From Lama glama (taxonomy: Eukaryota), in assembly GCA_028534125.1 (NCBI GenBank), contig CM052816.1:76696001-76760000 (forward strand): a DNA stretch of 64,000 nucleotides. Reading direction: 5' to 3'. Numbering within the stretch: position 1 is the stretch's first letter; each line of letters begins with the position of its first letter. The position numbers were made by a program, and so were the translations under genes. The notes beneath the pieces are model-generated. The model had not been told where the DNA came from and did no database searches. It saw only the letters and a list, made by a program, of their open reading frames with translations. Below are positions 11,884 through 25,965 of the stretch, piece by piece.

Positions 11884-12318
11884 GCAAGTACTACTCAACA
11901 CAGGCTCTATTAAACTTAACACAATATTCAAGACCGTGTCTGAACATTATATGAACAGGTGGCCTGTCTGGAGAGTTGGCTTCTCTGTGACTCTTCAAAG
12001 TATAGAAAGTGTAGAAATGCATTGTCATTCTTAACAGGGATGTTCCAGTTAGGCCCTTCTGATTTCTAGTCCCTGACACTTGCTTTTTCTCCCTACAAGC
12101 TTCACACTGATTCCAAGGACAATACAGGACTACCCAGCCCAGTAACTGTATTCAAATCCAGTGTTGATATGAAAGTGGGAGGGGAACGTAGGGCAGAAAA
12201 AATTCGCAAGATGCTCTCTTGCTTTATGCCCATGAACCCAAAGGTATATTTGTTTCTTTATTTAACTCGCTCTAACTGTTATTTACTAAGATCATTGAAT
12301 TTGTGTCTTTCTCTTTAG

Positions 12319-12587: not shown

Positions 12588-12641
12588 AATGGGAGTGAGC
12601 CCCTAATGAATCTTGATGACCAAGCTTGCAAACTGAAACTG
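12588..12641 (+). CDS. DAB2: DAB2 exon 8
   Basis: TCTTTTCAG acceptor; NGSEPLMNLDDQACKLKL; donor CTG|GTATGT; 54 nt. Confidence 0.9.
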
Positions 12642-12847
12642 GTATGTATGTGATTTTTTATGATTCTTACTTACCTTAACACAGGTTCTACTTCCTAAAA
12701 ATGTTGCTCAGCCAAATCTGTATTGAATCTGTATGAGAATCCAATTGTGACAACTCTTTCCCTAAACAGTAGTATAATATTTATGTTAATATACAAAGTA
12801 ATCTTTTAAATAAACACTTCTAAATCTAATCCAAATACTTTTTTAAG

Positions 12848-12908
12848 AGTGTGGATCAGATGAATTTGTTTGAGGACGTCTACACTTCATGACCTAAATA
12901 ACCTAATA
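12848..12908 (+). pseudogene. Decayed duplicate (pseudo-exon) of DAB2 exon 9
   Basis: Same TACTTTTTTAAG acceptor; AGTGTGGATCAGATGAATTTGTTTGAGGAC--GTCTACACTTCATGACCTAAATA aligns to exon 9 GGTGTTGACCAGATGGATTTGTTTGGGGACATGTCTACACCTCCTGACCTAAGTA; 2-nt deletion, TGA, no GT donor at the equivalent position. Confidence 0.9.
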
Positions 12909-13042
12909 TCAAATCTGTATTAGTTAAGTGAAAATCCAATTGTGACAACTGTTTTCCTAAACTTTAGGAAACAATTGCAACAATATACAAAGTGATCTTT
13001 TTTAATAGACACATCTGAATCTAATTCAAATACTTTTTTAAG

Positions 13043-13105
13043 GGTGTTGACCAGATGGATTTGTTTGGGGACATGTCTACACCTCCTGACCTAAGTAGTC
13101 CAACA
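13043..13105 (+). CDS. DAB2: DAB2 exon 9 (63 nt; skipped in a known human isoform)
   Basis: TACTTTTTTAAG acceptor; GVDQMDLFGDMSTPPDLSSPT; donor ACA|GTAAGT. Confidence 0.95.
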
Positions 13106-16100
13106 GTAAGTGTTTGTTTTTAAATTTGCAATGTAATGGAAATGACATCTATAACTCAAATTGGCAATTAACCAGAAATCTTGAGCATCTCATTGATACT
13201 TGGAAGGTGACTGCTGATTTTTCCTGCAAAAATGTAAATGGCTATTAGAACAAATTTGCATCTTAAGTCACCATGGAAGCCTATCAGCACTAATTCAGAT
13301 ACATTAATATTGCTTAGAGGTTAAATCTGAGTGATGGCTCAGACAGCGTAGTCCGTCTTGGTATTACTTAGGATCAGAAGGAGGAGCTGAATATTAATTC
13401 TTGGTATAAGCCTACTTGAAGAAAGTATGTTTGTTAGGTGATTAATTGTAAAGTCTCCTGGCCTCTTCTTTTTTTTTTTTTTCCCTATTCTTTCTTTTGC
13501 TATTTAGCAGCATAAGCTTGGTATAAAGTAAGACCTAAAACAAACAAGAGGCTCAGTTATGTTTAACTAAAGCTTGTCTTTGTTCAAAAAAAAAAGTATT
13601 GCTCGTTCTTTACAGGATATTATGGTGTATCCATTCTTCTTAGCATTCACTGATCCATTACAACTCTGCGAGAAGGGAGCAGTGTTTCCCTTTACAGATA
13701 AGGAAATGGGAATTCAAAAAACCCCTCATTTACCGAAGCAGAGGCCCAGATTCAAGGCTTAAGCCTGTCTCAAACCTTCCAAAATGGGCCTCAAGTGAAA
13801 TTACTCGTAATTTTGAATGACATCTTACAACTTACTCTATTTACTTAACAACTTCTTCAGTACTTGCTATTTGCAGGGCACAGAAGTGAGATTCACAGTG
13901 TTAATGACATCATGGAGTTTACGGTCTAGCAGAGAAACCAACACTAAAACTAAGCACAAAGACTACTGGTCGATGTTATTTACAAGGTATTTATCTAGTT
14001 TAGAGGTTCAGATAATGCCTCTGAGTGAGTGAGTTTCTGGACTTGAACATAAAAGGTGAGACGGCAATGACCAGACAGGAAGGACACCAGTCGAGAAGCA
14101 TGGGGAGGGTGTCCATCTAGGAGTCTCACACCAGGGGATTATCCCGCCAGCCTCTGTGACTGAGGAGGGCACAGGAATGAGAGCAGCAGCAGACCAAGAA
14201 CTGGGTAGGACTCTCACTTGCCAGAGTGGTGCAGACCATGGCAGGCCTATGAAATTTCATGTCAAATGCCCAGGTGCAGTGAGACTGAGAGGAGCAGGAG
14301 CTGTAGACACTCTGCCCCCAGCTCTGTGAGATTCGCAGTGTTTTCAGAGGCCCTAAAAAGCCTGCAGTCTAGAAGCCTGTTTAATGTTCTTTCAAGTAGC
14401 GAATCCTAACTCATTTGTCTATAAAACCTTCCGCTCCTCGTAATGTTTGTTACCCTTGTAGGGATAAAGTTTTTGAAATATCAGATTTGATAATCCTGAA
14501 AGGTCCATCCTAGCTCAGAGGTTTTTTGATTTCTAGGCAACTCTGCCCCTTCCTCCATTAGTAACTGTCTTCCAGAGTAAGTTGATGTCTGAATGACCTT
14601 CTTCCCAAGTATAACTGACGTTCAAACAAGTAGTCTATTGAAAGAGATCAAAATCCTCAAGCTATGAAGTAGAATCCCAGTGGGATAGGCAAGGAAGTGC
14701 TGACTGCTTAATCTGCTTCTGTAGATGTCTAGAAAGTTCTAAAAAAGGAAATGAAAAACATTAATAATCTTGAGTCTCATTTATATTAGACTTGGTGCAT
14801 TCTAAGAATTTTTGGTTTATAGAAATAAAATGCAAGCTTCAGTTAAACTAACAATAAATTAAAATGATAAATACCATCAAAATGATGGTATCTGCTAAGG
14901 AAGAGAATGCTAACGATGCTAATTATGTGCTGGTTAGACTTTGCCAGTGTCTTCTTACATACTGGCTCCATATTTGTAGGTCACAAAACAGATTTATCTC
15001 TACTTGATAAAACCAGCATGTTTAAAACTTTTGAAATCTCACAACAGTTGCTCTGGCAGAGATGAAGAGAAGCAGAAATCCAAATTACCTAGACTTCATT
15101 AGTGCTTCCCTGACCCGTCTGCCCCTTCCCCAACGTTTATACAAAACAGTCTTACGCATTTCAAATACAGCTCATGTTGCAAACTAAGTGGCATCCTTGA
15201 GAGCATAATTTTCATCAGAAAACCACTGGAATATTCTGCCATACTGTATCTATCTCCAAAAAGGAAAAAAAAAAAAAGGAAAGGAAAAGAAAAAAGAACA
15301 AAAAGACTTGGTCTCTAACTTTAAAAACCTGACCATTTGAAAGCATGGTTTTTACAAAAAGAATTTAAGGTGCAGGTCTCCCATCAAATCTGGGACGGGA
15401 ATGGGATTGGGGCACAAAGCACAGTGTCATGTACACGTAAGATGCCATGGTGGGCACAGGTGAAGCTGGAATAGAAGGATCAATGGGAAAAGGTTTTGTA
15501 AAGGATCTGAACTTGCACTGGGTCTTTGAAGTATGTAAGAAAAAGAGAGTAGCTAGGCTAAAAGTAAGTGAGGTCCCATGTGGGTCATTTTGAAAGTCTG
15601 GCTAATGAAGATTATTTTAATATAGGGAGTAGCAAGAAGCCACCGAAGGCTTTGTGTAGGGAGGTCCAGGATTTGGCAGGCTGGAATGGTTAGGGAGGAT
15701 GAGCTCCCTGGAGAAGGGCTAGTCTGTGGAACTCAGAATTTAAAACCTTGCCTGTGCAGACACCTCCGTGGTTGCCCGCCTGCCCCTCTTTCTGGAGCCC
15801 CTTAAGAGCAGGGAGTGTATTTCACGTTCATGTTGCTAGTTCTTGCCTCTCAGATGCTCACATGATGGCCAAGTGGATGCAGTGTTTACAGTCCAACAAA
15901 GAGTTAATGAAGCGCTCGCTGACTGAGGGGGTGGATGACAAGTCTTCCATCTTTCAGTTGCGGTCTATGAACTAGACTCTTAATCTTGGGTTCCAGCAAA
16001 CTCAGTCTGAGGAGAGCCTTATACATTTTACTTATAGGGTGACTATTCAGAAGTCTAACATTGTGGCTCCTGTTTGGTGTCCTAAGAAGTTCTTCTGAAG

Positions 16101-17822: not shown

Positions 17823-18476
17823 GAAAGCAAAGATATCCTGTTAGTGGATCTAAACTCTGAAATCGACACCAATCAGAATTCTTTAAGAGAAAATCTGTTC
17901 TTAACAAATGGGATCACCTCCTGCTCTCTTCCTCGACCAAAGCCTCAGGCATCTTTCTTGCCTGAAAATGCCTTTTCTGCCAATCTCAACTTCTTTCCCA
18001 CCCCTAATCCTGATCCTTTCCGTGACGATCCTTTTGCACAACCAGACCAATCGACACCTTCTTCGTCTGATTCTCTCAAATCTCCAGATCAGAAGAAAGA
18101 GAATTTGAGTAGCTCGTCTACCCCTCTGAGTAACGGGCCTCTGAATGGGGATGTTGATTACTTTGGTCAGCAATTTGACCAGATCTCTAACCGGACTGGC
18201 AAACAGGAAGCTCAGGCAGACCCGTGGCCCTTATCAAGTATGCAGACACAGACAGCAGTGAGAACTCACAATGGGGTATCTGAAAGAGAACAGAACGGCT
18301 TCCATATCAAATCCTCCCCGAACCCTTTTGTGGGAAGCCCTCCCAAAGGACTGCCCGTGCCGAATGGCGTAAAGCAGGACTTGGAAAGCTCTGTCCAGTC
18401 CTCACCACATGACTCCATAGCCATTATCCCACCTCCACAAAGCACCAAACCAGGAAGAGGCAGAAGGACTGCTAAG
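17823..18476 (+). CDS. DAB2: DAB2 exon 10, 218-aa p96-specific central exon (clathrin/AP-2 binding)
   Basis: ESKDILLVDLNSEID...DPFRDDPF...PWPL...NPFVGSPP...GRGRRTAK; 654 nt, phase 0-0; donor AAG|GTGAAT; LLVDL clathrin box and two DPF motifs. Confidence 0.97.
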
Positions 18477-24598: not shown

Positions 24599-25231
24599 GT
24601 GGTGTGTCAGTTATACCCCCTCAGGCAGGACCATGGAACTCAACCTCTCTAGTCTTCGGTCAGTCCACGTCAGTGGTCCCAGGCACTCTGATTGCTGGTC
24701 AGCCTTCAGGATTCAGCCAGCCACTCATCTTTACCAATAGCCCAGCTGTTCCAGGTTGGAACCAACCTTCATCCTTTGCAGCCTCAACTCCCCCTCCAGC
24801 CCCTGTTGTTTGGGGCCCATCAGCATCTGTGGCACCCAATACTTGGTCGTCGGCCAGCCCTCTGGGGAATCCTTTTCAGAGCAATGTTTTTCCAGCTCCT
24901 GCTGCGTCAGCCCAGTCCCCTTCTGGGCTCTCCTCTCTCCTGGTCCCTCCTCCTCAACCCCCTCCCAGAACTGGCCCTCCCAAGGACATCTCCAGCGATG
25001 CCTTCGTTGCCTTGGACCCACTAGGGGACAAAGAAGTCAAGGAAGTGAAAGAAATGTTTAAGGACTTCCAACTGCGGCAGCCACCTGTTGTCCCGGCAAG
25101 GAAGGGAGAGCAGAATTCCTCTGGAGCATCAAGTGCCTTCTCCAGTTACTTCAACAACAAAGTTGGCATCCCTCAGGAGAATGCAGACCATGACGACTTT
25201 GACGCCAATCAACTGTTGAGGAAGATCAATG
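24599..25231 (+). CDS. DAB2: DAB2 exon 12 (proline-rich region, myosin VI-binding SYF)
   Basis: CCCTTCAG acceptor; ...LGNPFQSN...PPPQPPPR...KEMFKDFQLRQPPVVPARKGE...SSYFNNKVGIPQENADHDDFDANQLLRKIN; donor ATG|GTGAGC; 633 nt. Confidence 0.97.
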
Positions 25232-25965
25232 GTGAGCTACCTACTTCTCTGTCAGCCGTCCCGACAGGTATTTCACTGTCATGTGGCCCCACAGAGTCCC
25301 TCAGAGGAACCCTTTTGCAACCCACCAATAGCCTTACTCTTGTGCTTTTTGCTTATCAGGAGTTGTGGAGGCTACTTAACCATTTACCTATGGAGTTAAC
25401 TGTTTACCTTAGCTCTTCCCAAGGGCTGGCCCAATGCTGCCCTCTTGTGACAAGTCTTAAAAAGGCTACCAAGAGCCATTGAAATTCAGTGGGTTGTGGC
25501 ACCTGGAGGGCTGTTTGTGTGATGATAAGGGCTCATTTTTTCATGAGTAGGTATATGTGGACGGCACTACCTGTCTAACTGGGAAAGTCAAAGTTTGCTT
25601 CAAAACGCAGCCAGAATTTGCATGCTAGATACACTGTATTAGCTCGTTAGTCTGCAGAGTGGTTTAAACTCTTGGGAGCCTCTATTTTGGTGTTGGCCTC
25701 GAGGCTTAATGAAGGTTTGCCATGTAGGTGCATTTCAGTGAGGGAATTCTGAATCTCTTCACTTGAAGTGAATATACTTGGCTTTCCCTTCCGAGAAGGG
25801 GTGGATCTGCCTGTAAGAATCATCGGGAGTCTTAGTATTTGGTGTTGATTTTTGTGCCATTGATGTCAATTTCAAAGTATGGAACTTAATTTCTAAGATA
25901 AGCCTGGAGAATTTGTGCATGTGTTTGAGGAGAGCTTGTCTGCTAACTCTTTTCTCACCTTCTAG

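Follow-up and report, generated by a model that had tools for sequence, protein, structure and literature searches.

The DAB2 locus and the duplication in intron 8

The window analysed here, a 64 000-nt stretch of Lama glama DNA, contains DAB2 on the + strand and then the start of complement C9, whose first five coding exons (43526–63558) lie downstream on the same strand. Compared with the annotated DAB2 of Vicugna pacos (P0123) there were no mismatches in the exon 10 and exon 12 matches, versus 3 (exon 10) and 7–8 (exon 12) mismatches with Camelus DAB2 proteins, which marks the gene as that of a South American camelid. Exon 8, placed by tblastn with camelid DAB2 proteins and by splice-site context, occupies 12588–12641 (+ strand, 54 nt, GT donor at 12642), and is followed on the same strand by intron 8 (12642–13042, 401 nt, or 206 nt when an upstream acceptor is used), exon 9 (13043–13105, 63 nt, residues 209–229, with a weak acceptor, a donor matching 6/9 consensus positions and the behaviour of a cassette in placental mammals) and exon 10 (17823–18476, 654 nt), which is joined to exon 8 in the isoform that skips exon 9. 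Elsewhere in the gene, exon 6 has a GC donor at 11884–11885 that matches 7/9 consensus positions, and in the alpaca models P0126 and P0128 an alternative donor at about 25230–25270 of the window lengthens exon 12 by 12 residues.

Intron 8 and exon 9 contain the tandem duplication of ∼197 bp that was reported in the preliminary description of this DNA: self-BLAST aligned 12713–12900 with 12910–13097 at 80.1% identity over 191 columns (E = 7e-42), and the shared blocks that had been named in the two units were seen in the alignment of both. Unit 1 (12713–12909, + strand; similarity at an offset of 197 begins at 12713) holds a decayed duplicate of the 3′ portion of intron 8 and of exon 9, and unit 2 (12910–13105, + strand) holds the functional 3′ part of intron 8, with its branch-type A at 13024, and exon 9 itself. 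That the duplication is an assembly artefact or a chance similarity is scarcely credible, because the E value of the self-match excludes chance, while the divergence of about 20%, the polarised decay and an ancestral base retained in unit 1 exclude an assembly duplication. Self-BLAST found no third copy in the window, nor was one present in the flanks, the other listed self-matches being dispersed repeats, and Tandem Repeats Finder at score 50 did not report the duplication. The 3-nt sequence of 12709–12711 recurs at 13104–13106, which could reflect either a microhomology-mediated event or chance. The beginning of unit 1 (12714–12737) also contains a short direct repeat of about 9 nt that is missing from unit 2, and RNA folding of 12900–13130 was no better than that of shuffled sequences (z −0.09).

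The exon 9 copy in unit 1 (12848–12908, + strand, 61 nt) agrees with exon 9 at 49 of 61 aligned bases and differs at 12. It had been called a dead copy carrying a 2-nt deletion, a stop and no donor; the deletion was found, as was the stop (12890–12892, + strand, codon 15 when reading from 12848 in frame with exon 8), and the homologous donor is indeed absent, but weak GT sites remain, of which the best between the two acceptors, at 12928 and 12992, each match 5/9 consensus positions. Since ten correctly placed real donors of DAB2 score between 5 and 8 of 9, weak cryptic donors in this interval could still function. Homology between the units stops at the last base of exon 9, and thus, judging from the breakpoints, the upstream copy probably never had a donor and never could have been a cassette exon. 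In front of it, the duplicate acceptor region (12826–12847, + strand) has a branch-type motif (A at 12829), a short U tract and AG, and the retention of the motif and of the same 3′ splice site was confirmed, the motif lying 19 nt upstream and the last 14 intronic bases being identical to those at the real site. As also predicted beforehand, splicing to 12848 would give an exon of 258 nt (12848–13105) with a premature stop; it is in frame and contains six stops, the first at codon 15, and by the 50-nt rule such a product is a substrate of nonsense-mediated decay (NMD). The upstream copy belongs to the known class of pseudogenic exons: it derives from an exon of DAB2 itself, a frameshift and a stop disable it, and its substitutions follow a neutral-type pattern.

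Decay and age of the upstream unit

Outgroups for polarising the differences came from exon 9 pattern scans, which gave one locus in metagenome contigs (L001), one spliced cDNA fragment in genome contigs (L002) and none in viral contigs; no mammalian intron 8 was found in any of these three contig sets. L001 is a bird locus whose exons 7–9 translate like a named hoatzin protein. L002:1-310 is a 310-nt contig within the genome of a bacterial species and corresponds to a spliced rodent-type Dab2 cDNA (exons 8, 9 and 11); it is contamination, and the annotation lists its product, P0144, as a hypothetical protein of bacterial origin.

These outgroups assign 10 of the 12 exon differences to unit 1 and the other 2 to unit 2. 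One of the latter, at exon position 56, coincides with a rat-type substitution present in only 5 of 83 proteins; this change more likely also occurred on unit 1, which would then carry 11 of the 12. The unit 1 changes affected 8 of 28 G/C sites and 2 of 33 A/T sites, mainly by loss of G/C, and transitions make up 10 of the 12 differences. The remaining unit 2 change, at exon position 53, bears on the age of the event: an Asn-to-Ser change is present in 14 of 14 cetartiodactyl-type proteins and in none of 69 other mammalian proteins with the motif, and unit 1 retains the ancestral base. Hence the duplication is most likely older than crown Cetartiodactyla, the alternative being a back-mutation in unit 1. 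The unit 1 branch is 0.19–0.21 substitutions per site (95% CI 0.09–0.35, from 10 changes in 61 sites), and the distal intron gave about 0.13 per branch. With neutral rates of 1.5–3.0e-9 per year, the unit 1 branch corresponds to 62–138 million years, a figure that is probably too high, because the G/C-rich sequence of the exon is quick to decay.

The duplicate acceptor and the neutral expectation

The two acceptors are closely similar: both have A at −3, 11 pyrimidines in the 17 positions from −20 to −4 and a YTNAY branch-type motif at the same distance, and they differ at +1, which is G at the real exon 9 and A at the copy. Among 12 DAB2 acceptors examined, A at −3 occurs at the real exon 9 site alone, which is also tied for the fewest pyrimidines. 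Because A at −3 and a 6/9 donor of exon 9 are likewise present in the bird locus, whose intron 8 has a single unit, these weak sites are ancestral.

It had been proposed that the duplicate acceptor may compete with the real one as a decoy or poison site. We compared it with a composition-aware neutral expectation derived from the G/C and A/T change rates of the unit 1 exon copy, a paralog test of low power (one pair, about 25 informative sites). Over the last 14, 20, 25, 30 and 40 nt of the intron, 1.3, 1.9, 2.4, 3.2 and 4.5 differences were expected and 0, 1, 1, 3 and 5 were observed (P 0.24–0.72), thus the acceptor is not better kept than the body of the pseudogenic exon once base composition is allowed for, and this part of the preliminary description gained no support from the test. 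A flat-rate model gave the region a mildly conserved look, with a lowest P of 0.067 for the last 25 nt. In the distal intron, 20 differences in 91 sites compare with 20 expected on two neutral branches. In simulations of neutral decay, AG, branch motif and pyrimidine tract all survived in 29–45% of runs. The longest identical run, an 18-nt block shared by the units, was considered as a specially conserved element and rejected (permutation p 0.26). Retention of the acceptor is therefore as the neutral model predicts and, within this weak test, the intact duplicate acceptor needs no selective explanation; the decoy or poison idea has no support at the level of sequence.

Proteins give a weak view of acceptor usage. 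A search for truncated proteins ending in the pseudogenic exon, which is insensitive to NMD targets and thus a weak proxy, returned 15 matches from 21 candidates. Two of the 15 stop after exon 6; the other 13 extend beyond exon 8, in every case into the true exon 9 and in none into the copy. None of the DAB2 proteins collected for the isoform count contains two exon-9-like motifs.

Skipping of exon 9 in mammals, birds and reptiles

Exon 9 had been equated with 21 residues missing from a known short isoform, and the annotation agrees: these 21 aa are absent from the 746–749-aa isoforms annotated in alpaca, camels, gorilla and many other species. We take human DAB2 to have an isoform without them as well, and the human short isoform was not among the 15 members listed of a cluster of 118. 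Among the 120 mammalian matches to exon 10 that were counted (the best 120 of 663), exon 9 is present in 61, 54 have a junction of exon 8 to exon 10, and five are other models. Besides alpaca, camels and gorilla, annotated isoforms without exon 9 come from elephants, manatee, tamandua, rodents, bats and carnivores, and the form is also seen in assembled transcripts; its annotation covers all four placental superorders (Xenarthra, Afrotheria, Euarchontoglires and Laurasiatheria). Skipping of exon 8 alone occurs in none of the same 120 matches, and was seen in one tamandua model (P0505). Ten proteins from a 50%-cluster search included no identifiable marsupial or monotreme DAB2.

The sauropsid set consists of the best 120 of 703 matches to a bird exon 6 query, from which seven short fragments were dropped to leave 113 proteins of at least 400 aa. 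No clean skip of exon 9 occurs in these 113 bird and reptile proteins: 110 have exon 9, and in the remaining three the reading continues beyond exon 6 into intron-like sequence, with exons 7–9 missing together. Of 62 further cluster members, 54 cover exon 6, and every one of these 54 contains exon 9. Sauropsid models (P0173–P0339) often skip exon 7, exon 8 or both, or part or all of exon 10, which is the reverse of the mammalian pattern, in which the small cassette is exon 9. One fish-type protein (P0353) lacks exons 9 and 10 together. Clean skipping in placentals, unseen in the sauropsid proteins, suggests that something changed in mammals, in a comparison of two sets that come from different queries and different annotation depth, are not independent, and consist of isoform models that depend on RNA-seq depth.

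The intron upstream of exon 9 also differs in length, at 181 nt in the bird locus versus 401 nt in the window, or 204 nt when one unit is subtracted. Intron 8 of the window is thus about double the ancestral length, as far as the single-unit bird intron represents it. Human intron 8 is presumably also about 0.43 kb long.

The form without exon 9 is, we assume, p93. DAB2 splice forms p96, p93 and p67 have long been known, with p96 and p67 as the main regulated pair (PMC5122593, PMC2527319, PMC3806822); the same region is skipped here, and the form shorter by 21 aa is annotated across placentals. The passages on splice forms in these three papers leave the exon missing from p93 unspecified and do not mention an intronic duplication, and a search that left aside most subscription journals found no publication on a duplication in DAB2 intron 8.

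Explanations for the duplicate unit and for exon skipping

We consider it probable that unit 1 is a neutral, decaying pseudogenic exon and that exon 9 is skipped because of its own weak splice sites of ancestral origin. In one old tandem duplication, the terminal part of intron 8 (about 135 nt) would have been copied together with the whole of exon 9, as far as the 3′ edge of the exon and without the donor, and unit 1 would have decayed neutrally since, as the comparisons above indicate within their low power. Splicing would normally choose the downstream acceptor, which has G at +1, exon sequence under selection and, 63 nt further on, a donor that permits exon definition; if the upstream acceptor were occasionally used, NMD would remove the resulting 258-nt exon with its early stop as noise. 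The low power of the paralog test and the flat-rate result for the last 25 nt weigh against this neutral reading, as does the clean skipping of exon 9 in placentals, unseen in the sauropsid proteins. Section 9 of PMC9225289 adds that splicing usually favours the upstream of two equally strong acceptors when the upstream intron is short, thus the site 206 nt from the exon 8 donor may well be engaged.

The pseudogenic exons described in PMC2718932 (Morais and Harrison 2009) are found in 0.4–1.0% of mammalian genes by the account given there, and the DAB2 copy resembles them: it arose locally from a coding exon of its own gene, carries a frameshift and a stop, is decaying, and would cause NMD if spliced in. 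Unlike them, as they are described in that paper, it has an acceptor without a donor, and so could serve only as an alternative 3′ splice site. Those supplements of PMC2718932 (one) and PMC6097662 that could be searched do not list DAB2.

A second explanation, which we regard as unlikely, holds that the sequence of unit 1 is neutral and that its length matters. Growth of intron 8 from about 200 to 401 nt would have abolished intron definition and left the weak exon 9 reliant on exon definition, thereby making it a skippable cassette in placentals. The switch from intron to exon definition is placed at about 200–250 nt in the part of PMC9225289 that treats it, and the added 197 nt would have carried intron 8 over this boundary; the bird intron has 181 nt, and that of the window has 204 nt without one unit. 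Lengthening of the intron would also fit the exon 8 to exon 10 junction in 54 of the best 120 mammalian matches and four superorders, set against no clean skip in 113 + 54 sauropsid proteins, and the unit 1 branch of 0.19–0.21 (CI 0.09–0.35) allows a placental-wide age. However, among mammals the duplication has been seen in this window alone, the distal intron at about 0.13 per branch favours a younger event, the bird intron is a sample of one and the protein sets derive from different queries (best 120 of 663 and of 703), and the fish-type protein P0353 lacks exons 9 and 10 together.

Quite unlikely, and third in our ranking behind the neutral fossil and the effect of intron length, is a duplicate site that binds U2AF/U2, engages the exon 8 donor and so tunes DAB2 output, either non-productively, through exon 9 skipping or intron retention, or productively, through the 258-nt exon and NMD. 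What speaks for such a decoy is the intact branch-type motif, U tract and AG, with the last 14 nt identical, the short distance of 206 nt to the exon 8 donor, at which an upstream acceptor is favoured, and precedents for decoy 3′ splice sites in the portions of the literature on caspase-2 In100 and on the decoy exons of erythroblasts that describe them. Against it are acceptor retention no higher than neutral, the change of G to A at +1, and the lack of a trace in the 13 short proteins, itself a weak test. The taxonomic pattern of skipping leaves room for a causal link, but a longer intron would account for this pattern no less than a decoy.

The precedents also fit imperfectly. Decoy exons of erythroblasts (SF3B1, OGT, ARGLU1), as presented in the relevant sections of PMC6097662, are highly conserved cassettes with both splice sites, mostly in introns >1 kb. 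The DAB2 copy is like them an intronic, non-coding, exon-like element able to engage a neighbouring splice site, with inclusion leading to NMD; unlike them, it is decaying (the low-power paralog comparison of conservation with neutrality being the one given above, P 0.24–0.72), lacks the homologous donor (best cryptic GT 5/9) and sits in a 401-nt intron. In100 of caspase-2, in the description in PMC2082412, acts as a repressor of the preceding exon and depends on a PTB domain that lies further downstream. It shares with the DAB2 copy an acceptor-like sequence with branch point and pyrimidine tract, no donor of its own and a place near a cassette exon, whereas the DAB2 copy lies upstream of the skipped exon 9 and arose by duplication, and In100 lies downstream and binds PTB. 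In DAB2 the 401-nt intron is followed by the skipped exon, an arrangement that matches neither the geometry of In100 nor that of the decoy exons.

A broader proposal covers both mechanisms, namely that exon 9, which seems to be constitutive in birds and reptiles, became a cassette throughout placentals owing to a duplication in their ancestor, via spacing, a competing acceptor or both. We think it possible, though on the improbable side.

Significance

The duplication is real and old, and is most likely ordinary decaying debris. As a fossil it would be of little importance, since hundreds of pseudogenic exons are known per mammalian genome. The doubled length of intron 8 may nevertheless have helped to make exon 9 skippable in mammals. 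A cluster of phosphorylation sites at DAB2 residues 221–231 is linked to mitotic arrest or nuclear localisation in the passage of PMC7869483 that deals with it, and because exon 9 (residues 209–229) overlaps this cluster, the short isoform may differ in regulation. If skipping of exon 9 was caused by the duplication, the locus would be a compact and testable case of a constitutive exon becoming alternative through gene architecture alone. If true, a conserved alternative-splicing event, by which an endocytic adaptor loses a phosphorylated segment, would have its origin in one dated mutation.
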